DNA of 63,998 nucleotides, filler included, from an uncultured bacterium (GTDB lineage Bacteria > DAOPZR01), in NCBI GenBank assembly GCA_964637655.1. It is 8 parts of 8 records of this genome, joined end to end, with 100 filler letters (N's around TTAATTAATTAA, not from the genome) between each part and the next. Parts side by side here need not be neighbours in the genome. Positions count along the whole stretch, not along the records: positions 51,748 to 60,135 come from CAZWUZ010000178.1; 7 more parts are not named here. One strand, given 5' to 3'. Positions 45,366 through 63,998 of this stretch are shown in pieces. The notes beneath the pieces were generated by a model. It saw nothing but the letters and a program-made list of their open reading frames with translations, was not told the DNA's origin and ran no database searches. The number at the start of each line of letters is the position of its first letter. The stretch's first letter is position 1. The position numbers and the translations under genes are program-made.

Positions 45366-48895
<3,530 letters not shown>

Positions 48896-48899
<4 letters not shown>

Positions 48900-49270
48900 G
48901 ACGGGCAGCGGTCGCGATGCTGGCGCTCGTGCTGTTCGGCACGGGGTGTGTGGCGGCATTGCGGGTGCTGGCCCCCGATGCGCGACGCGCCGAGGTGCGC
49001 GCGGGCGAGCGCTTCCGCGTGACGCTTATTTCGCCCGGCATCGACTATGCCTGGCGCTACCTGCCGGAGAACGCAACTGCCGTGACGCTGCGCGCGTCGG
49101 GCTATGAACCGTACGGGCCGGCTGATGCCCCACACGGGGTCTGGGAATTTGAATTTACCGCGTCGCAGCCGGGCGACCTCCGGCTGCATTTCGCCTGCCG
49201 CACGACAGCGGAGGGGAGCACTGCTCCCCCGCTGTCGCATCACTACCTCTACCTGACCGTGCTCCCGTGA
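48896..49270 (+). CDS. Exported protease inhibitor I42 (chagasin)-like protein
   Basis: Signal peptide, VRAGERFRVTL..G.DYAW..WEFEFTASQPG. Confidence 0.5.
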
Positions 49271-50211
49271 AAACGAACGCGCTCGGACGTACCGGGATTG
49301 TCGTCACGGAACTCTGTGCCGGGACGCTCCCGCTCGGGCCGCTGCAGAAGAACTGCACGGTGGACGAGGGAGCAGCACTCATCGCCGCGCAGCTGCGTGG
49401 CGGGGTGAACTTCATCGATACCGCGCAACTCTACCTCACCTATCCGCATATCCGCCGGGCGCTGGAACTGACCGGCAGCCGTCCGGTCATTGCCACCAAG
49501 TCGGGAAAAGCGGAGTATGCGGGCATGGCGGCGGCGGTGGCGGAAGCGCGTGACGCGCTCGGCGTGGCTTGCCTCGATATCGTGCACCTGCATGCGGCGC
49601 GCATGGGACCCGACCTGTGCGAGGTGCGGGCCGGGGCGCTGCAGTGCCTGAAGGAATGCCGGAAGCGCGGTGAGGTGCGCGCCATCGGGGTAAGCACGCA
49701 CGACGTGCGCACCGTGCGCATGGCGGCGGAGCATCCCGACATCGACGTGGTCTTCCCGCTCTACAATGCCGCGGGGCTGGGCATGCTCAATGGCGATGCC
49801 GCAGCGATGCGCGACGCCATCGCGCTGGCGCTGGCCAACGGGAAGGGTGTCTACCTGATGAAGGTGGTCGGGGGCGGGCAGCTGCTCGGGCGCTACCGCG
49901 AGGTGGTCGAGGATGCGCGCGCGCTGGGGACGGCGTCGCTCGCGCTCGGGGCAGTGACCGAAGCGGAAGCGCTGTTCAACGTTGCGTATTTTGCCGGCAC
50001 GCTCCCGGCTGATGCGGTTTTCCCCAAAGCCAGCGACAAGACCTATCAGGCCATCGGTTTCCTCTGCAACAATTGCGGCACCTGCCGCACGACGTGCGGG
50101 TCCGCCGCTATCAGCGAACGCGACGGCAAGGCCTGTATCGACGCGGCGAAATGTGTGCGCTGCGGTTACTGCGTTCCCGCCTGCCCGCAATTCGCCATCC
50201 GCGTGACCTAG
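49267..50211 (+). CDS. Aldo/keto reductase with C-terminal 2x[4Fe-4S] ferredoxin domain
   Basis: LGRTGIVVTELCAG, GVNFIDTAQLY, IGVSTH, CNNCGTCRTTC and CVRCGYCVPACP. Confidence 0.92.
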   Translation: MKTNALGRTGIVVTELCAGTLPLGPLQKNCTVDEGAALIAAQLRGGVNFIDTAQLYLTYPHIRRALELTGSRPVIATKSGKAEYAGMAAAVAEARDALGVACLDIVHLHAARMGPDLCEVRAGALQCLKECRKRGEVRAIGVSTHDVRTVRMAAEHPDIDVVFPLYNAAGLGMLNGDAAAMRDAIALALANGKGVYLMKVVGGGQLLGRYREVVEDARALGTASLALGAVTEAEALFNVAYFAGTLPADAVFPKASDKTYQAIGFLCNNCGTCRTTCGSAAISERDGKACIDAAKCVRCGYCVPACPQFAIRVT

Positions 50212-50297
50212 CGGAAAAAAAGAAAGAAAGAAAGGTGCCACTCTTTCACATTTTCACATTTACGAGTAGCACATCTCATTGATATACAAACAGATAA

Positions 50298-51467
50298 CTA
50301 TAGTTTACGAAATATTTTCTGCGCCTTTTCATGTCCGGGACAGCGCTGCAGCAGTTCGGCAAGTGATTGTTTTGCCGCGGCGTGGTTGTTGAGCTGCAGG
50401 TAGCGCAGGGCGAGCGCATAGCGGTCGTCGGGATGGTCCTGCAGGGCAATCAGGCGGCGTAGCAGGTAGACGGTCTTTTCCGGGCGCTGCGCGGCGTCGT
50501 AGACGGCAACGCCGTGGCGCAGCGCGTCGGGATGGTCGCCGAGCAGCGGCAGCGCGCGTGCGAATGCCTCCGCAGCGGCGGACGTGTCACCCTGCAGCAG
50601 CAGGCACTTGCTGAGGTTCAGGTGCAGTTCGCCGCGGTCGCGCTCGCGCAGCGTGCTGTCGGGGAGTGCCGACTCGGCACGGCGCAGCCAGTGCAGCGCC
50701 TGCGGGATGTCGTGCAGGCGCGCGGCATGCAGGATGCCGAGGTTGAGCGCGACGGCGGCGGCGCGGGCGGGCGGCGCGGTGGCGAAAGAGGCGCGCAGCG
50801 CGGCACCTTCCTCCGCGTAGCGCCCCTGCTTTTCCATTTCCCCGGCGAGCACGTAGAGCAGGTGATTGTTGCCGGGATCGCGGTCGAGCATGCCGCGCAG
50901 CAGTTTTTCGTAACTGCGGCTTTTGGCGGCGTAGCCCTCGCCGCGCAGGAAGCCGTAATGCTGCAGGGTATACGGGGCGCGGGCAAGCGTGCCGCCGGCG
51001 GCGATAAGCGACGGCTCGACCGACTCGTGCACCTGGCGCTGAAAGCGGAGGTCGTCGCGGCGGCGGAAGAGACGGATAACCTCATCGTCCCAGGTGGTGA
51101 AATGTTCGCCCTGCTCGGCATGGTTGACCCGCGGGAAGACGGCACCGAGCACCGCGGCCGGCAGCCCGCGCACCCAGGCGCGGAAAGCGGCGGGATCGTC
51201 GACACTGAACATCTCGTCGGCATCGATGACCAGGCACCAGTCGCCCGTCGCGTGGCGCAGCGACTCGTTGCGCGCGGCGCTGAAATCGTTGACCCAGGTG
51301 AAGGGGACGACGCGGGCGCCCGCGTCGCGGGCGATGGCGGCGGTATCGTCAGTGGAGCCGGTATCGACCACGACGCAGTCGTCGGCCAGCGGCAGCGCCT
51401 GCTGCAGGCAGCGCGCGAGGCAGTGCGCCTCGTTTTTCACGATCAGGCAGAGCGTGATCAAGGCCAT
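50298..51467 (-). CDS. GT2 glycosyltransferase with TPR repeats
   Basis: LCLIVKNEA, VDTGSTD, DFSAARN, IDADE, VHE, HYG, C-terminal TPRs. Confidence 0.92.
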   Translation of the reverse strand: MALITLCLIVKNEAHCLARCLQQALPLADDCVVVDTGSTDDTAAIARDAGARVVPFTWVNDFSAARNESLRHATGDWCLVIDADEMFSVDDPAAFRAWVRGLPAAVLGAVFPRVNHAEQGEHFTTWDDEVIRLFRRRDDLRFQRQVHESVEPSLIAAGGTLARAPYTLQHYGFLRGEGYAAKSRSYEKLLRGMLDRDPGNNHLLYVLAGEMEKQGRYAEEGAALRASFATAPPARAAAVALNLGILHAARLHDIPQALHWLRRAESALPDSTLRERDRGELHLNLSKCLLLQGDTSAAAEAFARALPLLGDHPDALRHGVAVYDAAQRPEKTVYLLRRLIALQDHPDDRYALALRYLQLNNHAAAKQSLAELLQRCPGHEKAQKIFRKL

Positions 51468-51473
51468 GCGGGC

Positions 51474-51502
51474 ATTGTACCTGTCGACCGGCAACGGGTC
51501 AA
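51474..51502 (-). promoter_or_regulatory. Sigma70 promoter, probably giving a leaderless GT2 mRNA
   Basis: TTGACC-17-TACAAT, 6 nt before ATG 51467, no SD. Confidence 0.65.
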
Positions 51503-51747: not shown

Positions 51748-51983
51748 AGCGCGCCGCAGCGCTGCGGATGGCTCACAACGAACCGCAGGAACGGCAGGAT
51801 GACGCCTGCGGTTTTGCCTTTGCCCTTGCCACCCGATACCAAAGTGTTGAGATACAGGTCTTCCCCGACCAACGAGTACACCCGCCCGCCGCCCGCACCG
51901 CGCCCCACGGGAAACTCCATCGCAACATCAGGATGTCGGTCTCGGCCATAAGACATCGGGACGCGGCCGTCGCGCAGTGTCAT
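51748..51983 (-). CDS. VirD4/TraG-like coupling-protein ATPase, N-terminus, 3' partial
   Basis: EDLYLNTLVSGGKGKGKTAGVILPFL Walker A in a T4CP-like context, ATGA overlap with the sigma gene. Confidence 0.6.
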
Positions 51984-52795
51984 CGTGCCACCCCCTCACG
52001 AACGCGTGCCTGCCGCTCACGCCGCGCGTACAACTCGATAAAGCACTCCGGGCGTTCTGCCACGCCAACGAGGCCGACCTGACCCAGGCGCCGGCTGAGT
52101 TCCGCGCGCACCTGCGCCGCGGCTGCACGCGAGTGACTCCACACGCGTGAGTAGTGCAAGCCGACACGCTTCGCGGCGGCGCGTGAAGTGCGCCCATTGA
52201 TATACAGCTCGACAAAGCTCTTCTGCTGTCGCGCCGGCAGCTTGCTGACCGCCTCACGCAGTACATCGACGACAAGCGCCAGTTCGGCATCATCATGGGG
52301 ATCGTGTGCGTCCGGATTAGCGATTACAGACTCGATTGGCGACGCGGCCGGCGCCTCATCATCGCCCACGCCGAGTTCGCAGTCGAGAGATTCCCGGCTT
52401 GCTTTCAACCGCTCTCGGCGCAGCCAGTGCAGCAGGTAGCCGTTGCACAACGAGCCCACGTAAGTAGACACACTTGCGCCGTGCCGGCAGTCGTAACCAC
52501 CAGCAAGTAGCCGCTCCGCCGCGCGCGTCGCCACCTCGCGAGTCGCCTCGCGGATTCGTTCCGTGCGTTCACCGTGTTTGTCGCCCCCGTGGTAGATGCG
52601 CGCGCGAACCACCCACTCTGCGATCTGTTCGATTCGCTTCATCAATTCGGCCCCGGCGCGGACATCGCCGAGGTGCACCCATCTCACTTCAAGAGATTCG
52701 CTGTTGAACGATGGATAATCCGGGCAGGTATAGAGGTCGTCGGAGCCTGCAAGGGCGAATTCGGCATCCTCGAGCGATCCGGATCGATGACCCAT
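51980..52795 (-). CDS. Divergent sigma70-family alternative sigma factor (regions 2 and 4)
   Basis: YDCRHGASVSTYVGSLCNGYLLHWLRRE and LREAVSKLPARQQKSFVELYINGRTSRAAAKRVGLHYSRV, with AGGAGG RBS. Confidence 0.8.
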   Translation of the reverse strand: MGHRSGSLEDAEFALAGSDDLYTCPDYPSFNSESLEVRWVHLGDVRAGAELMKRIEQIAEWVVRARIYHGGDKHGERTERIREATREVATRAAERLLAGGYDCRHGASVSTYVGSLCNGYLLHWLRRERLKASRESLDCELGVGDDEAPAASPIESVIANPDAHDPHDDAELALVVDVLREAVSKLPARQQKSFVELYINGRTSRAAAKRVGLHYSRVWSHSRAAAAQVRAELSRRLGQVGLVGVAERPECFIELYARRERQARVREGVAR

Positions 52796-52949
52796 ATGAC
52801 CCTCCTTATGCGTGCGACTACACGCATAGCAGCTACATGATACGTATTAGTAAGTCGCTGCTGGTTGGGATCCTATCAGGTTTCGCCCATGATTCCGGAT
52901 ACCACCGACGGGGGTCGTCGCCGCCTGCGTAATTGGATTATACCACGGT

Positions 52950-53561
52950 TTATCGAGTTTGTCGCGGGGAATTTATGTGATTTTCGATACAGTCAGTCGA
53001 TTTCAGCGCTACCTCGATTTGGTCACCGTCGATGGTCACTGATGCATACTGCCCGCGTTCTCCCCAACCAGGGTTGATGCTGTGACATCCATCTATTACG
53101 AGATGCTCTAGACGATGGTTATGGCCGAACAGCACTGCACGGATCCCGCGCGCTGCCAGCAGACGTATTGCATCAGATTCAAGGGGTTTCGAGAGAGGCG
53201 CGGCGGCGATATAGCGCTTATCTACCATCAGGTAGTGCGATATACGGAACTGCACTTGCTCGATAGTGATAATCTGTTCGGGCTGAGCACACAGCCGTGC
53301 AAGCCATCCCATATTCTCTTCCGAGACAATATTAGGACCCATTTTCCGGTGATGACGTCGCGCCTGTTGCAGCACGATCCACTCGTGGTTGCCGGGCACG
53401 ACGACGTCGAACTGGCGGGCGGCGGCGATCGACTGTGCATAGAGTTCTCGCGACTGGACAAACGCATCAAGGAAATCGCCGACATGGATCGACAGATCGT
53501 AGCCTGCGGATGGCAGGACCGCGATACCGTGGGTATCCGAAGTCAGAAATAACTTCTTCAT
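52950..53561 (-). CDS. Calcineurin-like metallophosphoesterase
   Basis: SDTHG, HVGD, GNHE, SH, FGHNH, INPG. Confidence 0.9.
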   Translation of the reverse strand: MKKLFLTSDTHGIAVLPSAGYDLSIHVGDFLDAFVQSRELYAQSIAAARQFDVVVPGNHEWIVLQQARRHHRKMGPNIVSEENMGWLARLCAQPEQIITIEQVQFRISHYLMVDKRYIAAAPLSKPLESDAIRLLAARGIRAVLFGHNHRLEHLVIDGCHSINPGWGERGQYASVTIDGDQIEVALKSTDCIENHINSPRQTR

Positions 53562-53629
53562 GCCGGTCTCCTTTTCCGTACTATACCGTGCCGCGCCTTG
53601 CCTGTTGCATTCGGCTTCCTTGCATCCCC

Positions 53630-54274
53630 CTACAGCAACCCCTCGCCCGTTGTCTCCCCCGGCTCTGCCGCCCCGGCCCAGGCGCCGTCTTCCTCGCTCG
53701 GAACCGCGCGCCGGGCGCACAGGCAGTCATACTGAGCCCGGACCTCGCTGGCATAGCCCTCAGGCAAGGTGTCCGTCCCCACGCCGTTTATCAGGTGCTT
53801 GAGAAGCAGGCGCAGCGAGATGCTAACGCTCTTGTTGTCGCTCACCCTAAGGGTCTGCATATCCTCAGCAAGGGCAAGCAGGTCCTGTGCCAATCGGAAT
53901 CCCGGATCGGCGTCACGCCGCGCCACAACCTCGTCCCGGGTCATCCCTCGGGTGATCTCACGCAGCTGCTCCCGCGCGACGTCAAGCTGCTTGTCATGGA
54001 TCGCCGCCTGATGCCTAACCCGCCAGAGGTTGCGCTCGGCACGATCCCGCTGCCGGAACAACAGTTCGCGGGCCCGGACGCCCTGCCGATGATACCTTAC
54101 GTGCCGGCGGCGCTCGGCACCAAGCGAGATGCCAAGGATCGCGTCGACAAATGATGACAGATCGGGGCAAGTTTGGCGTCCGTGCGCGGCGTAGTCTTCC
54201 TGTAGTGCGGCTAGTGTCGCGGAGCGCAGGCTGAACTGCCGCTTGATGATGTCGTTCTTCTTTCTCCGTCCCAT
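53630..54274 (-). CDS. Hypothetical protein with putative N-terminal ribbon-helix-helix and coiled coil
   Basis: KRQFSL-SATLAALQEDY-LSSFVDAILG strand-helix-helix pattern, GGGGGA RBS. Confidence 0.55.
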   Translation of the reverse strand: MGRRKKNDIIKRQFSLRSATLAALQEDYAAHGRQTCPDLSSFVDAILGISLGAERRRHVRYHRQGVRARELLFRQRDRAERNLWRVRHQAAIHDKQLDVAREQLREITRGMTRDEVVARRDADPGFRLAQDLLALAEDMQTLRVSDNKSVSISLRLLLKHLINGVGTDTLPEGYASEVRAQYDCLCARRAVPSEEDGAWAGAAEPGETTGEGLL

Positions 54275-54558
54275 ATGTTCCCCCTTCAGCACGCCAAAAT
54301 GACCCGCTGCAGGTATATTCATTAACTGGATAATATATGCATACCGTCACGCCAATATTCGGTGCGAATCACGTCATCCGCGCGCCCCGACCATCACGCC
54401 ACTGACCCTGCCAGTCGCCCGCGCGACCGATCCCCACCACGTCCGATCCGCCAGTTCCCCCGCGCCGCCCCCACGCGCGGCGACCGCCGGGTGGGTGGCA
54501 GGCGGGCGGGTGGTGATCCTTGCTGGCCCCCGGCGGTCGGCCCTGTTGCGGGGCTCCA

Positions 54559-54764
54559 GCGGTCCTAGTTCCTTTCCCTCTCCGTTCAGAGGCCATTTGG
54601 GGGGGTGCGAAAGGTCCTCGTTCCGTTCACCCCGCCCTCGGGTTCCCCGCCTTCCGGCCACCGGGAGCGGTCCCAGTTCCACATCCCGCGTCTTCCGGCG
54701 CCCGATTGCGGTCCTCGTTCCGCTGCCTAGCTTGGTTAGCGAGGGCAATCGGAACAGGGACCGC
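54559..54764. repeat. Cluster of five 14-bp motifs GCGGTCCYNGTTCC (4 direct, 1 inverted)
   Basis: 54559 gcggtcctagttcc, 54611 aaggtcctcgttcc, 54667 gcggtcccagttcc, 54708 gcggtcctcgttcc, 54751 ggaacagggaccgc (reverse complement). Confidence 0.85.
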
Positions 54765-54776
54765 TTAGCTCACGTG

Positions 54777-55100
54777 TCAAACGGGAGGGGCCAACCGGAC
54801 CGGCACCATTCCTGGGAGGGTGAGCTGGCGCGGATTGTTATAGCGTTCGAACTCCTGCTGTGCTCGTTTCCTCCGACGTCGTTCCCTTTGGCGTTCTGCT
54901 GCACGTTCCCGTTTGAGTCGGAGCTTTTCGTTGACACACAGCATGTGCTCGTATAACTCATCGGCCCGACACCTCCCGGGCGACGGTCCTAGGAGTGCGC
55001 ACCGCGCGTCGGCCTCGGTGATGGGTGTGTCAGTAAGGATCATCGCGTCCCTATAAACCGGACAGATGCCATCGTGCGACGAGCAATAAAGCGTAGGCAT
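54777..55100 (-). CDS. Small hypothetical Cys-containing protein with basic helix
   Basis: 107-aa ORF with GGGGGA RBS, co-oriented in the Rep operon. Confidence 0.6.
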   Translation of the reverse strand: MPTLYCSSHDGICPVYRDAMILTDTPITEADARCALLGPSPGRCRADELYEHMLCVNEKLRLKRERAAERQRERRRRKRAQQEFERYNNPRQLTLPGMVPVRLAPPV

Positions 55101-55114
55101 GCTAGATTCCCCCC

Positions 55115-55321
55115 TTAGCTCCCGGCCCGCTCATCCGCCTCGCGGACCGCACGAACACCGTAGCACTTGTAGCAGCCACAGCGATAGACTATCCAGTCCG
55201 CGTCTTTCTTGTCGCAGCGTTCCATGATCCCACGCTTGATTCCCTCATTGGCGGAGTGGACGCCAATCTCATCCAGTTCCAACAGCTCCTCGTCAGTCAT
55301 CTGCTTCAGCGTCTTCTTCAT
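55115..55321 (-). CDS. Small hypothetical protein with CxCxxC
   Basis: AGGAGG RBS, MKKTLKQMTDEELL...RCGCYKC. Confidence 0.6.
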   Translation of the reverse strand: MKKTLKQMTDEELLELDEIGVHSANEGIKRGIMERCDKKDADWIVYRCGCYKCYGVRAVREADERAGS

Positions 55322-55399
55322 GTCCTTCCTCCTTCGCGCTTTTGCGCGCTTTGTCGACTGATGCAGTCGCATCAGTTCTTCTTGATTTCTTTACTCAAT

Positions 55400-56674
55400 C
55401 TACCGCGTCGCGATTCCTACGTACTTCAAACCGACAGGAATCTCCGATACCACCTGCCAGTTTCCGTCGACCTGCTGCTTGATTACGATCTTGCGCGACC
55501 TCCGGTCGCGGGCGACACTGTAATCCCCGGTTACCGTACAGCGGGTCAGCTCAACGGCGATCGCCGCGCGAAGCCGGGCGGGGTAGGCTTCGTGCCTGAA
55601 GTTCGATCCGCCACTGCGACGGATTTTCGAGTTCCGCGGCCGGTGCTTCGCGGCGCGGCGAAGGTCCTTGAGCATATATGTCCTGCGGGTAATGCCTGGC
55701 TCGACGCGCTCGCCGGACGTCGTATAGCCCACGCCGACTCCCTTGACGACGATGTCGCCGAGCGGCCAGAGCTGGTTGAGACGGGCTTCTGTAAGGACGG
55801 TCCCGTCGATGTCGAGTTTGTATGACTTTTTGCCTTCGGGTTTGGAGTGATTGGGCAGACTGCCGATTGGCGCGGCGATCAATATGTGGTAGTGGCGGGC
55901 GCAGACAAGCGCGGTGGTGGCCTCCGCGGGGGAGACTTTCCGCATCTTGACGAGCTTGTGCCAGGTGGATTTCCGGTGTTCCTGGATCGCGCGGACCCAG
56001 ACGTAGCACATCTTCACTCCCGCGCGGCGGAAAGCGCGGACCATGTTGCGGCAAAACGTGGTAAATGCCTTGTCGATGTCCTTGTCCTTCAACTTCGACG
56101 ACTTGATCGTGATGGTCATGAAACACTCGTGCAAATCGTGCTCATCGCGGGCGCGGGCCAACGCGTCAAGCTTGTTCTCGAGTCGGTATTCGGCTTTGAG
56201 GTGGGCGTCGAGTGGTATGAATATGTGGTTGCTAGTCTTCTCGTCCCGGAGTTGGAGGAAGAACAGTGCGTGAGGGTGCTTTTCGGCGATCTTCCGGGGC
56301 ACCCTGGCCATGGGAGTCCGTTTGGTCGGCTTATACCGGCTGGTGCGGGTCGTGGTCGCCTGGGTGAGGTCATCCGTGGGGGAGGGCGGGGGAGGGGTAT
56401 CGGGAGTTGTCCCGGGAGTGGGTGTCGGGGAGGAGGTCTCTGCCTGGCTCTCAGGGGTGAGTCCTGAAATATGAGAATTGGAGGACAGAGCGGGCGGAGA
56501 GGCGTCCTCAGCGGTGGCATAAATGCGGGTATGTTCATCAAATTGTCCCTGAGTGGTCCCCCCTGCAACCGAGTCAGGAATATGTGCTTCTCCCGGCCGA
56601 CACGCCGAGTCTTCATCGCGCGCATGGCTCTCGTTCGCTGCACCGTTTGTATTGTTGCTACGTTTATAGTTCAT
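55400..56674 (-). CDS. Rolling-circle HUH endonuclease (Rep or relaxase-like)
   Basis: Motif I FMTIT, YVWVRAIQ, motif II HYHILI, LWPLGDIVV, motif III YMLK. Long Pro/Thr-rich N-terminus and GGAAGGAG RBS. Confidence 0.8.
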   Translation of the reverse strand: MNYKRSNNTNGAANESHARDEDSACRPGEAHIPDSVAGGTTQGQFDEHTRIYATAEDASPPALSSNSHISGLTPESQAETSSPTPTPGTTPDTPPPPSPTDDLTQATTTRTSRYKPTKRTPMARVPRKIAEKHPHALFFLQLRDEKTSNHIFIPLDAHLKAEYRLENKLDALARARDEHDLHECFMTITIKSSKLKDKDIDKAFTTFCRNMVRAFRRAGVKMCYVWVRAIQEHRKSTWHKLVKMRKVSPAEATTALVCARHYHILIAAPIGSLPNHSKPEGKKSYKLDIDGTVLTEARLNQLWPLGDIVVKGVGVGYTTSGERVEPGITRRTYMLKDLRRAAKHRPRNSKIRRSGGSNFRHEAYPARLRAAIAVELTRCTVTGDYSVARDRRSRKIVIKQQVDGNWQVVSEIPVGLKYVGIATR

Positions 56675-57200
56675 TGCTTCGACTCCTTCCAAAAGACTGC
56701 CGCCCATATCACGGGCGGCAGTCAACTCCGATTTGCCGCTCCTACTTGCACTTGCAACCCCGTTTCAATCGGCGCGCCAATTTGCAGGCGCGATACTGTT
56801 GATTTTGCTGTTACAACGTGTTTCTTTCCTCATTCTCCACAGATAACAACTCGTAATGTTTCTGCTCGTTCAGCCAATCAGGTCCGAGCTGTTCCCCTGC
56901 AGCTATTCTCCATTTCAACTTGCAGCTTTGTGTTTCTGTACACGTTATACCCCTGAATCCATACTTGGTGTGAGTAATCAATTTTCAATATTTTCGTTTC
57001 TCAAGTTGTGCTTGTTAGAGCGCAATCAATGAAATTGAGGAATGTGGAGGAGAATTATGCCAGCATGTCATAGACAATTTTATCGCTTACAATACGCGAT
57101 CGACGTTGCTAGTTAGCCTCACAGGGGGGGCTCAACTCGGTAGAGTTATGCGGTGTGGGAACAGCTGCTTACACGAGACGAGCAAATGCCATACTTCCAG

Positions 57201-58139
57201 TTACTTTATGATCAAGTATCGATACCCCTTCTTCACGAGGTCGCATGCGGTCTTGTGGTTGATTCTAGCCAACGTCTCATTTTCCCTTATTATGTCACGT
57301 CGGTGGGCCTCACTGTTGTACGGCCTGTTCAATCGACTCGCATATACTTTTTCCACAATCTGCGAATATTTCATACCGCTCTGCCGCAGGTCGTATATCT
57401 GCAAGTACGTTTCGAGTTGTACTATATCCGCCCGTGAATATGCGTATCGTTGCTTCCGATACGTATGATATTGGCGTTGTTGCTCCTTGATAATATGTTT
57501 AAACTCTTCGTCGATCAGTTCGCTGCTTGCCTGCAGGTTTACGACGACTTCCATACATATCGGGACATCTGCCTTCGTCCCCTTTCCTAAATTGATTTTG
57601 CTTCCTATCTGGTTCAGGGTGTTGCGCAGCCTCGTACGTCCAGAGGTGAGTGAATCGGTCGAATCATATAAGTTTTCTGTCACTTCGGGGAACAATTCTG
57701 ATAGCGTCCCCTTTGCGATCCCCCAGTCTGCCGGTCCAGCGATGTAAACACCTTTGGGCAGACACACTTTGTCAGGATCCACGAACGCCGTAATGCCATA
57801 ATTGCGCCGCAAGACTACTTCCGCTGCCTTTCGCATCTGCCGCTGAACTTTTGGTGATGCCCGCAGATGTTCCGCAGCATATGCGTCGCGAATAAGTTCT
57901 TCATCCGCAGCGCTGAATGATGCTTTTTGGTCAATGATTGTCTGCGCCTTTTGCTGCAGCTTCTTTATCTTGTTAGACGTGCTCGTATACAACAATCTAT
58001 GGCATTCAGACCAGAATGACCGGTAATCGCGATTTCTTCGCAAATACTGCCATCGATAGTTCTGGCTATCGGCGTTCAGCCCCTGACCCTTCCTGATGCT
58101 TTTGATATTCCCGATGGATACGCACCCATGCTTCTTCAT
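57201..58139 (-). CDS. FseA-like transcriptional activator (DUF6499-like N-terminus, DUF2285-like C-terminus)
   Basis: RWQYLRRNRDY resembles the AWEFLRRNxxY motif. The C-terminal LQIYDLRQSGMKYSQIVEKVY...ACDLVKKGYRYL resembles the DUF2285 HTH and GYRxL ending. Confidence 0.65.
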   Translation of the reverse strand: MKKHGCVSIGNIKSIRKGQGLNADSQNYRWQYLRRNRDYRSFWSECHRLLYTSTSNKIKKLQQKAQTIIDQKASFSAADEELIRDAYAAEHLRASPKVQRQMRKAAEVVLRRNYGITAFVDPDKVCLPKGVYIAGPADWGIAKGTLSELFPEVTENLYDSTDSLTSGRTRLRNTLNQIGSKINLGKGTKADVPICMEVVVNLQASSELIDEEFKHIIKEQQRQYHTYRKQRYAYSRADIVQLETYLQIYDLRQSGMKYSQIVEKVYASRLNRPYNSEAHRRDIIRENETLARINHKTACDLVKKGYRYLIIK

Positions 58140-58148
58140 CCGTATCCC

Positions 58149-60135
58149 CTACTCAAGTCGCAGAAATACGCTGCCTGCGTCACGATAGCTCCCGCCTTTC
58201 AAATACGCCGCATCAACCCTGATCACGCACCCCGCCAGCTCCGCCGGCAGGCGCAGCACGCAGCGATACTCGCCCGATTCCATCGACGTCAGATCGTCAA
58301 ACCAGACAACCATATTGCCACGATCCTCGCCGTCGTCGTAGACCGCCACCACATCGCCACCCTGTGGCACCTCGGTTTCGACATTCACCCGCAGGGTAAG
58401 CGGCAGTACGGCGTTCTTCACCGTAATGCGCAGGGCAACAGAGCCGCCCGGCGCCGCAACCTCCTGTGCCGGAGCAGCCCAAACAATCGCGTTTCTCAAT
58501 ATGTCTGCCAATGCCGCCGCGTTTTTGCTGTATTCCGACACTGCGTACAGGACCTTACCCAGGCCCCAAGCGTTGGCAACCACGGCCGGATAGGCTGCTT
58601 GCCGGCCTCCTCCGTTGCCATTACCATGCCCGTTGCCGTTCCTGCTCTCATCAGTTTCCGTCAGTGTCAGTGTCACCATGCCCAGCACATCGCCGGACAG
58701 GACCTCCGTGATGCGTTTCGTCTTCCCCTCGATGGTCAAGGTCAGTGTGTCCTCTACCAGGTCGCCCTGATTGACTGTCAGGGTTGCGCCGCCATTCAGT
58801 ACGCCGGCAACCTTGACCCCGAAGATATTCTGCCAGCCCCGGTCGGTGCTCTCCGGGGTGTTGATGTCCTCATACCCCAGGCTCACCAGCGATTTGCCAA
58901 GTGCCACCTGATCCGCCAAACGGGAGTTGGCAATATCGTCCAGCGCCACCTGGTCGCCAATAATCAGGTAGGTATTGTAATCAGCCAACGCCGCCGTGAG
59001 ATCAGTCACGTTCTCGACTATGCGATAATCAAGTGCTGCACTATCCAGGGCCGCCTGCAGCGCCGCCAGTCCTGCTTCCTTGCTTGAGGGTTGCTCGTTC
59101 GCGGGTCCATTCCACCACGCCAGCACACGCGGCGTGTTCAACAGTCCTGCCGATACCTCAAGCGCTGGCTTTACCGTGATCGTCCGAATCTGCGTCGCTC
59201 CAACGTTTCCGGCATTATCAGTCGCGCGATAAGCGATGGTCGCTATGCCACTCGCAACGCCAGCCTGTTGCAGTTCGAACGGAGCAGAATATACCTGCCA
59301 ACTGCCGCCGTTGATTGCATACTCGATGCTCGCCACGCCACTGATAGCATCCGTGGCCGAGATCGACACCAGCGTTTCCGGCACCGCAATTGCTCCGGAA
59401 GCGTCCGTCGTGTCGAGCAACAGTTCGCATACCGGCGGAGCAACGTCGTACTGTTCGACTATCTCAACCTCGAATTCACCCTCGCTGGTATTCCCCACTC
59501 TGTCGGAGACCTGATAGCGCTCCATGTACACGCCCGGCGTCGAGAAGCTAACCGGACCGGCATACGGGCACAGTTCGCCACCTTCATGTGCCAGACTCAG
59601 TGTTTCCACGCCACTGCCGGAGCCATCTGTTGCGGTCAGCGTCAGGCGCTGCAGAGCATCGAGTCCCCATTCAACAGTCGGGGAGACGCTATCCCGTACA
59701 AACGGCACCTCAATAGTGCCTGTCCGATTCCCCAGGCCGTCCTGCGCGTAGTAGCGCAGTATATGCGCTCCGTCAGTCGTCGGCATCTGCACAGACACCT
59801 GGGTCGTTGCTGATCTCCACCAGTTGTCATCCACCTGATAGTGCACACTCGGCTGCCATGACGGGTTGTTGTCCGTCGCCTTCAGTACAAACTGCGTGCT
59901 CCCCGCAATATACCCGTCAACATGCGGACCGTTCTGTTCCAACCAAACCGTCGGCGGTTCCTGTTCCTGCAGCACGGTCACTGTCGCGTTGCCCGTCGTG
60001 CTGTTTCCGGCAAGATCAGACGCCTGGACATCCACTTTCCAGCTGCCATAGATAACTGAACCGTACGAACCGCCTATGCCATCCCACGTATACACGTGGG
60101 GACCATTATCGAGTAATGTGGCTGTCTGCAAGGTC
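58149..60135 (-). CDS. Large extracellular protein with tandem Ig-like repeats, 5' partial
   Basis: Repeated D..PP...ATD..SGV...Y...Y.A.D..GN motifs. Confidence 0.75.
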
Positions 60136-60235: not shown

Positions 60236-60313
60236 CTGAGGGGGAAGGTTGGATGAGGGTGAATAGATACGCTTATTCGCATCTGCAGTGGTAGCCGCAG
60301 GCTTCAGCCTGCG
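60236..60313. repeat. Two REP-like elements at the contig start
   Basis: 60236-60265 equals 45319-45348, and 60288-60313 is the reverse complement of 51575-51600. Confidence 0.8.
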
Positions 60314-60350
60314 GTAGTCAGCATTCCGCAGTCGCTTGTGGGGGTGCCGG

Positions 60351-60764
60351 TTAGGCCAGCCGCCGCATATATTCCCTGATCGACTGCGCCGTTGTTGCGC
60401 TCAGCGGGGCCGGCAGTTCGTCCGGGGCGAACCACCCGAACGCCGCCGTCTTTTCCGGTTCCCTGATGCGCGGTTTCCCGCTGACGATGCGCGCGCAAAA
60501 GCCGACGCTCACCCAGTGCTGCCCTGCCTCCGGCAGAAACTGTTCCGTCCACCCGAGATTGTCGAGCAGTTCGATTTCCACCCCGAGTTCCTCACGCACC
60601 TCGCGCCGCACGGCGTCGGCAACGGTCTCGCCGAATTCCACTGCGCCCCCGGGACGCGCCCAGCAGCCCGCCTCGTTGCGGCTCGCCGGCCCCCGCTGCA
60701 GCAGCAGGATTTTCCCTGCCGCATCGATGAGCAGCGCCCCGCACCCCACCCCGACCTGCTTCAT
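60351..60764 (-). CDS. NUDIX hydrolase
   Basis: PGGAVEFGETVADAVRREVREELG Nudix box. Confidence 0.93.
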   Translation of the reverse strand: MKQVGVGCGALLIDAAGKILLLQRGPASRNEAGCWARPGGAVEFGETVADAVRREVREELGVEIELLDNLGWTEQFLPEAGQHWVSVGFCARIVSGKPRIREPEKTAAFGWFAPDELPAPLSATTAQSIREYMRRLA

Positions 60765-62080
60765 CGTCCGCCCCGGTACATGGATTTCGCTTTCGCCGCC
60801 TGCACGCGATGGTCGACCACCGGCTGCACGTACGGCAGCCGGTGCGTCAGCGGGTCATGCAGTTGCGCCGCCGGCAGGTGTTTAAGTTCCGGCAGCCACT
60901 GCCTGATATACGCCGCGTCCGCATCGAACCGCTGCGCCTGCAGCAGGGGGCTGAAGATGCGTACCGGCTTCGGGTCCGCCCCCACCGACGCCGACCACTG
61001 CCAGTTGCCGATATTGACCGCCGCATCGTAATCGAGCAGCCACCGCGCGAAGTGCCGCTCGCCGGGCCGCCAGTCGCAGAGCAGGTCCTTGCACAGGAAC
61101 GACGCGACCATCATCCGCACCCGCCCGTGCATCCACCCCTCCGTGTGCAGCTGCCGCAGCCCTGCGTCGACATACGGGTACCCCGTCTCCGCCCGCTCCC
61201 ACGCCCGCAGCAGTTTCCCGTCGTTCTCCCAGCGCAGGTGCCGGCGCTTCGCCTGGAATTCCCACACCAGCGCGTCGGGAAAATGCCGCGCGATATGATG
61301 CCAGAACTCGCGCCACGCCAGTTCGCTGATGAACGTCTCCGCGCCCCGCGCGCGCGCCGCGTGCAGCGCCTCGCGCGGTGAGATAAGCCCGAACCTGATA
61401 TACGGCGACAACCGCGAGGTGCCATCGAGGCCCGGCAGGTTGCGCGTCCGCTCATAGTCACCGTAGGCGAACGCGCGCAGCCGCTTTCTGCCCCACGCCG
61501 CGTCCCACGCGCTGCTGCCGCCCCGCACCCGCCGCAGCACCGTTTCCGTTTCCGGCACTGCCACGGTCATCCGCCACCGCCGCGGCAGCGGGAAGAGTGC
61601 CGGCGCCGCGTGCTGCCGCCAGAGCCGGTAGAACGCGGAGAACACCTTGCGCGGGGGGAGCAGGCCATGCGGCACGGTCAGCGCATCGTCGAACGTCTTT
61701 ACCGCCACGCCCTGCGCCGCGCACCGCTTCGCCACCTGCGCGTCGCGCTCCTGGCCCGCCGCGCTCAGCGCGGCGTTGTGGTAGAGCGCGTCCGCCTGCC
61801 ACTGCTGCAGCAGGCGCGGCAATTCGCGCTGCGGGTCGCCGTAAACCAGCGCCAGCCGTGTCCCCCGCGCACGCAGCTGCCCGTCGAGGTGGCGCACCGC
61901 TTCCTTCAGGAACCCGACCCGCGCATCGTCGCGCGGCAAGCCGTCAAGAATCGTGGTGTCAAACACGAACAGGGGAACCACTTCCGCGCCGTCGCGCGCC
62001 GCATGGTACAGCGCCGTATTATCGTGCAGGCGCAGGTCACGCCGCAGCCAGCAGACGATACGTTGGTACGGTTTTGCCAT
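60761..62080 (-). CDS. phrB: Deoxyribodipyrimidine photolyase (class I CPD photolyase/cryptochrome family)
   Basis: WLRRDLRLHDN, TSRLSPYIRFG, ELAWREF, TGYPYVDAGLRQL, GWMHGRVRM, NIGNWQW. Confidence 0.93.
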   Translation of the reverse strand: MAKPYQRIVCWLRRDLRLHDNTALYHAARDGAEVVPLFVFDTTILDGLPRDDARVGFLKEAVRHLDGQLRARGTRLALVYGDPQRELPRLLQQWQADALYHNAALSAAGQERDAQVAKRCAAQGVAVKTFDDALTVPHGLLPPRKVFSAFYRLWRQHAAPALFPLPRRWRMTVAVPETETVLRRVRGGSSAWDAAWGRKRLRAFAYGDYERTRNLPGLDGTSRLSPYIRFGLISPREALHAARARGAETFISELAWREFWHHIARHFPDALVWEFQAKRRHLRWENDGKLLRAWERAETGYPYVDAGLRQLHTEGWMHGRVRMMVASFLCKDLLCDWRPGERHFARWLLDYDAAVNIGNWQWSASVGADPKPVRIFSPLLQAQRFDADAAYIRQWLPELKHLPAAQLHDPLTHRLPYVQPVVDHRVQAAKAKSMYRGGR

Positions 62081-62108
62081 TGTGCCGCTCCCGCTCACCT
62101 GCTATACT
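62080..62108 (+). promoter_or_regulatory. Sigma70 promoter, probably giving a leaderless mRNA for the DUF2238 gene
   Basis: TTGTGC-17-TATACT with TGn, 7 nt before ATG 62116. Confidence 0.55.
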
Positions 62109-62115
62109 GCCGCGC

Positions 62116-62748
62116 ATGCAGACGGATGCGCGATTCGACCTGAGCGCCCTGACCCCCGCGCCGCCGCGCACCGCGCGGCTGCTGCTCGCGCTCTACCTCG
62201 TCTACTTTACCATACTCGGTATCGCCCCGTACGACCGCACGGTCTGGTGGGCGGAGAACCTCCCCATCCTGCTCATCGTCGGCACCCTCACCGCCACCTA
62301 CCGCCGCTTCGCCTTCTCCACTACCGCCTACGCGCTCATGGGCTTTCTCGTCTTCCTGCACACGCTCGGCGGGCATTTCACCTTCGCGCTGGTGCCGTTC
62401 GACTGGGTGACGGACTGGTTCGGTTTTTCGCGCAACCATTACGACCGTATCGCGCATTTCACCGTCGGCTTCTACGCCTGGCCGCTCGCCGAGTTTCTGC
62501 TCCGCCGCAACCTCACCCGCGCGCGCGGCGTCCTCTGCTTGTTTCCCGTCAGCGCCATTCTCGCCGTCGCGGCGCTCTACGAGATCTTCGAATGGCAGTA
62601 TGCGGTGCTGGGCGACCCGGCAGCGGGGCTCGCCGTGCTCGGTTCGCAGGGCGACATCTGGGACGCGCAGAAGGACATGCTGGCTGACGGGCTCGGCGCG
62701 GTCACCGCGACGCTCTTCTTCCTCTGGCGTACCCGCCCGCGCCGCTGA
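62116..62748 (+). CDS. DUF2238 (YjdF-like) inner membrane protein
   Basis: PYDRTVWWAEN, RNHYDRIAHF, YEIFEW, LGSQGDIWDAQKDM. Confidence 0.9.
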   Translation: MQTDARFDLSALTPAPPRTARLLLALYLVYFTILGIAPYDRTVWWAENLPILLIVGTLTATYRRFAFSTTAYALMGFLVFLHTLGGHFTFALVPFDWVTDWFGFSRNHYDRIAHFTVGFYAWPLAEFLLRRNLTRARGVLCLFPVSAILAVAALYEIFEWQYAVLGDPAAGLAVLGSQGDIWDAQKDMLADGLGAVTATLFFLWRTRPRR

Positions 62749-62752
62749 CCGC

Positions 62753-63998
62753 TCACCCCGCCGCCGTACGCATCACCCGCCGCAGTTCTCCCGCCAGCAC
62801 CCCGAGCACCACCAGCGCCGCCGCGCCGCGCAGCAGCAGGTCGACCGGCAGCGGCAGGTGCCACAGCTGGAACTGGCCCCAGATGGCCAGCAGCAGCAGC
62901 AGCCAGGGCAGCAGTCCGCGCCATGCCGCCCGGTGACTCACATCGCTCACCTGCGCCCGCCGCCGCAGCCACGCCAGCGCCAGCAGCAGCACGCCATAGG
63001 CGAGCACCGTCGCCAAGGCCGCGCCCGCCAGCGGCATGACCGGGATCAGCAGCAGGTCGAGCACCACATTCACCAGCAGCGCCAGCAGCGCCGCCGCAAG
63101 GATGTAGCCCGGCTTCTTCGCGCGGTGGTAGCCGACCGAGAAAAACGAGTAGAGCCCGTACAGCACATAGCCGAGCGCGATGAGCGCGATGAGTCCGGGC
63201 TCTGCCGCGTACGCATGCACCGGGGTGAGCAGGAACAGGTAGGGCGCAAACATGACCAGCAGCAGCGCCCCCGCGGTCAGCGCCATGACAAACAGCCGGT
63301 AGGTGGCAAGGTCCGTCCCCCCGCCGCGCGTATAGATGTATTCCGGCCAGAGCATCTGCAGCGGGGTAATGAGCAGCAGCAGCAACGCGGCGATTTTGTA
63401 GTTGAAATCGTAGATGCCCACCAGCGTCGCGTCACCCGTCAGCCACTGCAGCAGCAGGCGGTCGAGCAGTTCGAGACCGCAGAAAACCAGTCCCGTCGCC
63501 GCCAGCGGCAGTCCGAACGCCGCGTAGCGCCGCAGCCGCTGCCGCAGTTCCCCCGCGGGGAGCGCGACGGCCAGCACCGCGCGCAGCCGCACGATGAGCA
63601 GCAGTGCCACCAGCGCGTTGGCCAGCAGCATCCCCCAGAATGCGCCCGTCACCCCGAGCCCCGCCAGCAGCACCGCCCCGTAGACCAGCACCAGCCGCAG
63701 GCCGTTCAGCAGCAGGTTCGCCTGCAGGAACTGCCGTGCCTCCCCGGCGATGCGGAAGCGGATGAGCAGGGCGTAGACCAGCGCGTTGCACAGCACGTAG
63801 AGCAGGATCACCGGGTAGAACGCCGCATCCGTATCCGCCGTGAGGAAGGCGTTCCGGTACCACCCGTGCAGCGGCAGCGCCACCAGCACCAGCAGCAGCG
63901 TTACGGCCGCAATCCCGCGCAGGAAGGTGGCGAACTGTTCATCCCGTGTTCCCGCCGCTGCCTCGTTGTAATGCCGCATGAAGCCCGTCCCCAGCCCG
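62753..63998 (-). CDS. Polysaccharide flippase (Wzx/MATE-like), 5' partial
   Basis: Many TM helices, YAAFGLPL, DRLLL..VGIY, NVVLDLLLIP..GAALAT. Confidence 0.85.
   Translation of the reverse strand, partial: GLGTGFMRHYNEAAAGTRDEQFATFLRGIAAVTLLLVLVALPLHGWYRNAFLTADTDAAFYPVILLYVLCNALVYALLIRFRIAGEARQFLQANLLLNGLRLVLVYGAVLLAGLGVTGAFWGMLLANALVALLLIVRLRAVLAVALPAGELRQRLRRYAAFGLPLAATGLVFCGLELLDRLLLQWLTGDATLVGIYDFNYKIAALLLLLITPLQMLWPEYIYTRGGGTDLATYRLFVMALTAGALLLVMFAPYLFLLTPVHAYAAEPGLIALIALGYVLYGLYSFFSVGYHRAKKPGYILAAALLALLVNVVLDLLLIPVMPLAGAALATVLAYGVLLLALAWLRRRAQVSDVSHRAAWRGLLPWLLLLLAIWGQFQLWHLPLPVDLLLRGAAALVVLGVLAGELRRVMRTAAG

Follow-up and report, generated by a model that had tools for sequence, protein, structure and literature searches.

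We analysed a 63,998-nucleotide chain of contigs joined by N-linkers (hereinafter the window) from an uncultured bacterium (GenBank assembly GCA_964637655.1), focusing on positions 51748-60135, which make up one contig (C178; 8388 bp) of a host genome (G000) assembled into 485 contigs (65% GC, 90.55% complete). C178 carries eight minus-strand genes, likely the middle of a mobile island of about 44 kb, beside the 3' part of a surface-protein gene. A reading of the sequence that preceded this work (the original prediction) had described these eight genes as a candidate mobilizable element; all eight open reading frames (ORFs) were found in the order it claimed, each with a purine-rich stretch resembling a ribosome-binding site at its likely start, which is an internal Met in the ORFs of 68 and 214 amino acids (aa). 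The contig comprises:

51748..51983, minus strand: first 78 aa of an anchor-less VirD4-like, ClpX-like fusion ATPase, including its Walker A motif; a stub cut at the contig end
51980..52795, minus strand: sigma-70-family factor-like protein, 271 aa, regions 2 and 4 (TIGR02937, PF08281)
52950..53561, minus strand: metallophosphoesterase, 203 aa, likely cargo (PF00149; motifs DTH, GDF, GNHE, GHNH)
53630..54274, minus strand: RHH-like DNA-binding protein with a coiled coil, about 214 aa (pattern read by eye; NikA-like in the Atlas, 0.81)
54559..54764, no strand: candidate origin, as a double-strand origin (dso) or origin of transfer (oriT), with 14-bp repeats and a hairpin
54777..55100, minus strand: 107-aa ORF with five Cys, no family in family scans
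55115..55321, minus strand: 68-aa ORF with four Cys (internal Met start), no family in family scans
55400..56674, minus strand: HUH rolling-circle initiator and putative relaxase, 424 aa, single-Tyr type, PF23343-like (from motifs, homologues and a model)
57201..58139, minus strand: FseA/RovC-like transcription activator, 312 aa, with a DUF6499-like N-terminus and a DUF2285-like C-terminus
58149..60135, minus strand: 3' part of an Ig-like/OmpL47-barrel surface protein, 661 aa, open at the contig end (NF047446, 135.5 bits, cut-off 40)

The Walker-A ATPase, whose start shares 4 nt with the stop of the sigma-factor gene just as had been described, is present on C178 solely as the 78-aa stub with the Walker A motif GGKGKGKT. 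Extending past position 51748, as the original prediction had proposed, led to the end of another contig, C7:

C7:33849-35609, at the end of C7: remainder of the ATPase, 586 aa, predicted continuation of the C178 stub

Contig C5 encodes a 645-aa protein whose start shares 64% identity with the stub, and a genome search matched residues 95-644 of that same protein at the extreme end of C7 with 45% identity. When placed on six full-length homologues, the stub reaches residue 86 and the match to C7 resumes at 95 (82/91 and 80/89 in two shorter homologues), and among both ends of all 485 contigs ATPase pieces occur only on those of C178 and C7. Because the two pieces are collinear and no other contig end carries one, we infer that C7 continues the C178 ATPase, with about eight residues missing between them.

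Seven members of this ATPase family are full-length or nearly so (C5, C7/C178, P0029-P0032 and the metagenome locus L014). On structural modelling, the family has the coupling-protein (VirD4/TrwB) fold, with a nucleotide-binding and an all-alpha domain and Walker A and B motifs. For instance, residues 31-371 of a model of the C5 paralogue, built from a six-sequence alignment, match Cag-beta (Z 14.9), DotL (Z 14.9) and TrwB (Z 13.6), and the C5 protein matches PF02534 at its cut-off. The coupling domain is the better conserved half of the protein (median identity 54%), with Walker A GGKGKGKT and a DEYQ motif kept in all copies, and all 13 plasmid matches are annotated as coupling proteins of type IV secretion systems (T4SS). 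No membrane anchor was detected: hydropathy peaks at 0.74 in the stub and at no more than 1.39 in five full-length members, against 2.62 in a membrane-anchored control protein from contig C168, while the C7 piece has one peak of 1.72, in the all-alpha region. HerA/Zot, considered as a label for the ATPase, was rejected on Pfam (no Zot or HerA match) and on fold ranks, the absence of these proteins from the fold list leaving kinship possible. Scans of loci with the C5 ATPase as single query found nothing, the sole same-family relative of the host among 60 genomes drawn (G001) has no match, a full-length copy was recovered in one (L014) of 80 metagenome loci kept of 181, and in none of 80 genome loci kept of 144 did the match reach the C-terminal, ClpX-like part. 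Distant homologues (24-34% identity) lack this tail and, in three of the four loci scanned, lie within VirB4/VirB6/VirB10/VirB11 operons.

That the nearest outside homologues of the ATPase sit in full T4SS operons raises the alternative of a remnant of an integrative and conjugative element, whose mating-pore genes were lost or fall in an unassembled gap. The fragmentation of the assembly into 485 contigs, with two gaps within the element, would accommodate this, and a frameshifted second clpP 3' end (C7:24065-24200) shows that rearrangement has occurred. However, the same pore-less gene order is seen again on C5 (with 20 kb downstream assembled, inspected by eye and partly scanned) and on L014, both gaps fall within open reading frames, and the core genes are intact; we thus hold a decayed conjugative element to be decidedly improbable. 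VirB4 and other mating-pore families were absent from the 17 off-window element proteins scanned. Separately, one of the T4SS operons recovered (L096:8733-11401) has a MoxR-type AAA gene directly upstream of its coupling-protein gene, another pairing of a coupling protein with an AAA protein, and ORFs of similar sizes occur in L097, L100 and L110.

The C-terminal part of the ATPase has a second, ClpX-like AAA domain. With a profile of the family as query, the top 15 of 17 PDB sequence matches are ClpX (best E 5.5e-4), and residues 463-636 of the C5 model match the ClpX large domain (ClpX residues 63-315, Z 13.7). The fold match stops at about ClpX residue 317, leaving no small AAA domain. Elsewhere in the genome, no ORF but host ClpX is matched below E 0.01. 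Identity among copies of this domain is 32-99% (median 42%). ClpX is characterized by a Walker B Glu, a GYVG pore loop, an IGF loop and a small AAA domain. The first three, with the IGF loop sought as [LIVM]GF, occur in none of the seven copies, whereas host ClpX has all of them; every copy has Asp instead of the Walker B Glu, and Walker A is intact in just two (C7/C178 and L014). The domain is therefore likely inactive, as judged from its sequence.

Downstream of the ATPase, C7 encodes a 172-aa protein and then a ClpP (PF00574, 192.6 bits). The order sigma-like HTH gene, ATPase, small gene, clpP is present on C7/C178, on C5 and on L014, bearing out the linkage of core genes in relatives. Homology links the small gene of C7 to that of L014 (E 8e-9), and the three ClpPs are 53-57% identical to one another and 37-39% to host ClpP. 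Apart from the clpP of L014, the other core genes have no match in the 162 outside loci searched. The C7 ClpP retains the catalytic Ser and His and has Asn in place of the catalytic Asp, which is kept in the C5 and L014 proteins. Listeria ClpP1 is said to be a natural ClpP with the same Asp-to-Asn change, and we found no paper confirming this. In a complex prediction, two ClpP chains modelled together with the ClpX-like domain and the conserved end of the small 172-aa protein gave a score of 0.00, which carries no weight either way.

An alternative is that the ATPase-ClpP module of an integrative rolling-circle island acts as a decoy, jamming rival conjugation or remodelling host ClpXP so as to protect the regulators of the element. 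The Walker B substitution in 7/7 copies, an intact Walker A in 2/7, the missing IGF and GYVG loops, the Asn of the C7 ClpP and the lack of a membrane anchor in all five full-length members checked would fit this proposal, as would a separate MOBF-relaxase element on C168 of the same genome with a membrane-anchored coupling protein of its own. We nevertheless consider a decoy unlikely, if worth serious thought: it is the coupling domain that is better conserved, with Walker A and DEYQ in all copies, two of the ClpPs keep their Asp, and anchor-less coupling proteins do support transfer (PMC7434980). The C168 element itself (L182:1221-7262) encodes, by eye, a 1343-aa MOBF-like relaxase/helicase with a GGDEF-like stretch, and 3' ends of integrase genes are found at the termini of C168, C446 and C215 alike.

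The paralogous core on C5 (C5:20703-28272; loci L001 and L002) comprises a short HUH-like ORF and DEDDh exonuclease, RHH-like, sigma-region-4, ATPase and clpP genes. The RHH-like and HUH-like ORFs lie upstream of the sigma-ATPase-clpP module, and the latter, HUH-like by eye, differs from the C178 Rep and has no Pfam match; the core adjoins a type I restriction locus, and C5 has no integrase match. On C7, the frameshifted second clpP end (locus L012, C7:24065-24277) is 82% identical over 63 nt, and an adjoining 71-nt stretch is 79% like C17:10520-10589, possibly a trace of internal rearrangement or of a second recombination site.

The candidate enzyme for DNA processing is the 424-aa Rep, in which the Rep-type motifs I-II-III named by the original prediction are present as FMTITI at 185, HYH at 261 and YMLK at 333. 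The Rep itself matches PF23343 under the cut-off (E 2.4e-5). A full-library search recovered 26 relatives (E 5e-10 to 5e-4), and in an alignment of 23 of these with the Rep (24 rows; the multi-stretch P0019, P0025 and P0026 left out) 21 of the 24 rows match PF23343, while the second His of motif II and the Tyr of motif III are invariant throughout. Modelling (pLDDT 85) agrees with an HUH identity: the best match among 48,161 chains is SIRV1 ORF119 (2x3g; Z 7.5, root-mean-square deviation 3.6, 115 aligned), an HUH endonuclease (PMC11253617), followed by a Helitron transposase (Z 6.6), and the named viral matches are microvirus replication initiators. A word-based search returned the Rep alone, and a Rep-profile search of G001 gave no match. 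In the Rep tree it clusters with the long-tailed P0002, P0003 and P0005 (support 100/99). An ORF in the C5 paralogous locus matches the tail of P0003 with 49% identity across 172 aa; as the Rep clusters with long-tailed relatives of which one shares its tail with that locus, the element family probably includes this Rep type, and its Rep modules appear to be exchangeable.

Given that the Rep family is PF23343, that the corresponding Atlas clusters are largely viral and that the fold matches microvirus Reps, the locus could be conceived as a filamentous or other single-stranded-DNA prophage, or a phage satellite, replicated by Rep and packaged by the ATPase. The coupling-protein fold of the ATPase speaks against this, as do the size of 44 kb, unfitting for such a phage, and the lack of any match in 50,697 phage records or in two viral-contig scans; nor was a Zot or capsid Pfam found among the element proteins scanned, a set that leaves out very small off-window ORFs. 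We regard a phage origin as very improbable.

Between the 107-aa ORF and the RHH-like gene is the repeat-rich spacer that had been pointed out, with five iteron-like copies of GCGGTCCYHGTTCC within 206 bp: direct 14-bp copies begin at 54559, 54611, 54667 and 54708, and an inverted copy at 54751-54764 closes a hairpin. On C178 the 14-bp word has six matches against 0.42 expected, a number reached in none of 200 shuffles, and five of the seven genome-wide matches to its 12-bp core lie inside the candidate origin. The hairpin at 54700-54772 has a z of -3.5, for a stretch chosen by eye; the whole spacer (z -0.45) folds no better than shuffles.

The original prediction had noted no integrase or att site on the contig, which holds for C178; both were found on C7, and the att pair is shared between C7 and C17:

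C7:18320-18369, right orientation: attachment-site (att) copy, 50 bp, from the 5' half of tRNA-Leu(CAA), 49/50 nt identical to the intact tRNA on C17
C7:18422-19840: tyrosine integrase (PF00589, 35.5 bits, cut-off 27.1; R, K, YxLRH, H and Y residues)

An excisionase-like gene with an HTH_17-like domain lies upstream of the integrase, and the C7 part beyond clpP runs through low-GC cargo, an HTH/HD gene and two more phosphoesterases to this xis-like gene and the integrase. The C7 att copy is the only copy of tRNA-Leu(CAA) sequence outside tRNA genes. GC content drops at both att sites to about 51-55%, with 51, 58 and 55% inside the island against 67% in both flanks. On this evidence, C7, C178 and C17 would form one island of 43.8 kb plus gaps (about 44 kb) in tRNA-Leu(CAA). 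The C178-C17 join draws on the att pair, on open surface-protein frames at both ends and on composition (rank 3 of 968 contig ends), with weak scores in a split internal-repeat test, and appears less secure than the C7-C178 join; the 661-aa piece on C178 is, from its sequence, likely the end of an open 3367-aa ORF on C17 and belongs to the cargo. In G001, orthologues of both flanking genes are not beside tRNA-Leu, so that synteny gives no comparison with an empty site. The arrangement recalls those tRNA islands of Islander that have a piece of the tRNA 5' end on their upstream side and a restored, complete tRNA gene on the opposite side (PMC4383910), the displaced 5' fragment being the rarer type (159/3919) in that collection (PMC4383910).

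The activator and sigma-factor labels are tentative, with scores just below curated cut-offs. The activator matches PF20109 (residues 30-53, E 0.0011) and PF10074 (residues 230-309, E 0.001), both under the cut-off, in the order seen in FseA, and its motif RWQYLRRN at residue 29 resembles the AWEFLRRN of PMC10359603. It resembles FseA of ICEMlSym and RovC in combining an N-terminal DUF6499-like motif with a C-terminal DUF2285-like domain on a mobile element, and differs from FseA in being one unbroken ORF with no frameshift, in scoring under the Pfam cut-offs and in that no target promoters were found (PMC10359603). Activators of this type are known on proteobacterial elements (PMC10359603). 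No homologue of the activator was found among 1038 candidates, a word-based search recovered only the activator itself, no shared activator box emerged at the 11-mer level among nine intergenic regions, and promoter and terminator counts did not exceed those in shuffles. The sigma-like protein matches TIGR02937 over residues 78-230 (E 1.1e-10; 41.4 bits, cut-off 42.9) and also PF08281, while its counterparts on C5 and L014 match region 4 or HTH models only. The RHH-like label is the weakest of these: the Atlas gives a lead to NikA-like clusters, and Pfam gives no match. On C5 the same slot is taken by an RHH-like ORF, and the protein is, by its sequence, a possible relaxosome accessory factor.

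Taken together, the island has a tyrosine integrase, att repeats (on different contigs) and, by homology, a putative relaxase of the rolling-circle-replication (RCR) type, as expected of an integrative mobilizable element (IME) as defined in PMC5357655. With a Rep whose best fold match is an HUH endonuclease, an ATPase of coupling-protein fold without Zot or HerA matches, and core genes linked in relatives, the three points that could have refuted it turned out in favour of the mobile-element reading of the original prediction. The reading that we favour, with confidence slightly better than even, is an IME that is excised by its integrase, nicked by the HUH Rep and passed by its anchor-less coupling ATPase to a borrowed mating channel. 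The union of the three contigs into one element and each of the following steps are likewise matters of inference. The FseA-like activator would switch on excision and transfer genes, with the sigma factor amplifying or staging the response. The integrase and xis-like protein would then excise a circle, restoring the host tRNA, and Rep would nick at the repeat-hairpin spacer. Rep may both copy the excised circle by the rolling-circle route and serve as the relaxase, the repeats being bound by the RHH-like protein. Through its coupling domain, in which Walker A and B are intact, the ATPase would bring Rep and its bound DNA to the type IV system of a helper. In the weakest step, the ClpX-derived domain would act as a non-catalytic docking module and not as an unfoldase, since its broken motifs favour docking or control over force. 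It would probably link the coupling protein to proteolysis by the element ClpP or host ClpXP, and such proteolytic control could set the lifetime of Rep, the sigma factor or the activator.

Several observations weigh against this IME reading. With respect to nicking, the Rep model has no Foldseek PDB match at E 0.001, and its best Z of 7.5 is below the level that the tool calls distinctive. The branches of the Rep tree are long, with support falling to 93/90 after P0002 and P0003 are dropped, and in these two closest Reps the first His is P and the motif III Lys is lost, which casts doubt on whether nicking matters in every member. With respect to coupling, the ATPase model is that of the C5 paralogue, with a mean pLDDT of 60 and residues 1-73 and 334-458 poor; DndH also matches its coupling domain (Z 12.7), the C7 piece by itself matches no Pfam family of type IV coupling proteins at E 0.01, PF12696 matches C168 only, and the single C7 sequence places p97/Cdc48 just above ClpX (E 0.001 versus 0.0015). 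The membrane domain has been called essential for VirD4-type proteins (PMC7434980), and anchor-less coupling proteins often need a small membrane partner (PMC7434980), while six small or regulatory core ORFs of C178 and C7 peak at a hydropathy of 1.1 or less. Finally, the C178-C17 join has no sequence overlap; VirB4 (PF19044, PF03135) and VirB10 (PF03743) were not found in the host genome (completeness 90.55%, two gaps in the element); and the distance of about 19 kb between Rep and the integrase sets the island apart from compact IMEs such as those of streptococci, with their cp-relaxase-xis-int block (PMC5357655).

The closest parallels are streptococcal IMEs with relaxases related to RCR initiators (Rel_PHA00330, Rel_PF01719, Rel_PF02407, MobT; PMC5357655, PMC5704250). 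Those of PMC5357655 share with the island a tyrosine integrase, a tRNA target, an RCR-related relaxase candidate and their own coupling protein, and they have no T4SS; for the island, none was found in the 90.55% complete assembly. Their RCR-type relaxases are accompanied by TcpA (FtsK-like) or by no coupling protein, VirD4 being found only with MobC (PMC5357655, PMC5704250). Unlike them, the island has an anchor-less VirD4-fold protein with a ClpX-like tail and clpP, sigma-factor and activator genes (PMC5357655); the favoured reading would extend IMEs with RCR-type relaxases to a partner of VirD4 fold, and none of the 144 streptococcal IMEs of PMC5357655 has this combination. Like TraJ of pIP501, the island ATPase is a coupling-protein ATPase without a membrane anchor; unlike in the proteins without a transmembrane domain described there, its C-terminal domain is a ClpX-like AAA fold and not an acidic tail, and the island core yielded no small membrane partner (PMC7434980). 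The likeness to ClpXP consists in the fold of the large AAA domain (ClpX residues about 63-317), encoded near a clpP gene; the differences are the fusion to a coupling protein, the lack of the small AAA domain, IGF loop, GYVG pore loop and Walker B Glu, and the Asn of the C7 ClpP. In the open literature, we found no account of a coupling protein that carries a ClpX-like domain and is accompanied by its own clpP, most subscription papers lying outside this coverage.

A bolder version of the IME reading would have the coupling protein, a captured ClpX motor and the dedicated ClpP as one machine in a new family of integrative elements, which we think rather improbable. We give equally little credence to its corollary, that this machine unfolds, strips or trims Rep-DNA before export through borrowed channels and so makes elements with phage-type Reps mobilizable; under this version, the domain might still be capable of binding or using ATP in C7/C178 and L014, where the second Walker A is intact. 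If true, this version would offer a natural handle on the unfolding of conjugative substrates, for which the responsible enzyme has been called unclear (PMC5826034); in any case, a natural fusion of a coupling protein to an unfoldase-derived domain bears on that question. The unusual fusion ATPase and its clpP now lie on a delimited element with an integrase, an att site and a candidate origin, amounting to a whole that can be cloned and tested.

The remaining genes are less telling. The two small Cys proteins of the original prediction (five Cys in the 107-aa ORF and four in the 68-aa ORF as read from its internal Met) have no credible family match in family scans. The metallophosphoesterase was correctly called (PF00149, 27.2 bits, cut-off 21.5) and has paralogues on C9 and C478. 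Cargo on C17 (L180) includes a restriction locus with a C5 methylase and an HATPase that an IS3-like piece interrupts (C17:10680-14151) and the 3367-aa surface protein with amidase, Ig-like and lamin-tail domains (C17:17940-28042). Neighbouring contigs in the window (45366-51494 and 60236-63998) carry ordinary genes by eye (dnaE, aldo-keto reductase, glycosyltransferases, Nudix, photolyase and flippase) that bear no relation to the finding. Elsewhere in the genome, after tRNA-Arg(CCG), C9:1197-16914 (L003) combines an HTH/HD gene, a DUF2958-like stretch and the phosphoesterase paralogue with, by eye, a set resembling a cyclic-oligonucleotide-based antiphage signalling system (CBASS; patatin, nucleotidyltransferase, E1/E2 and JAB).

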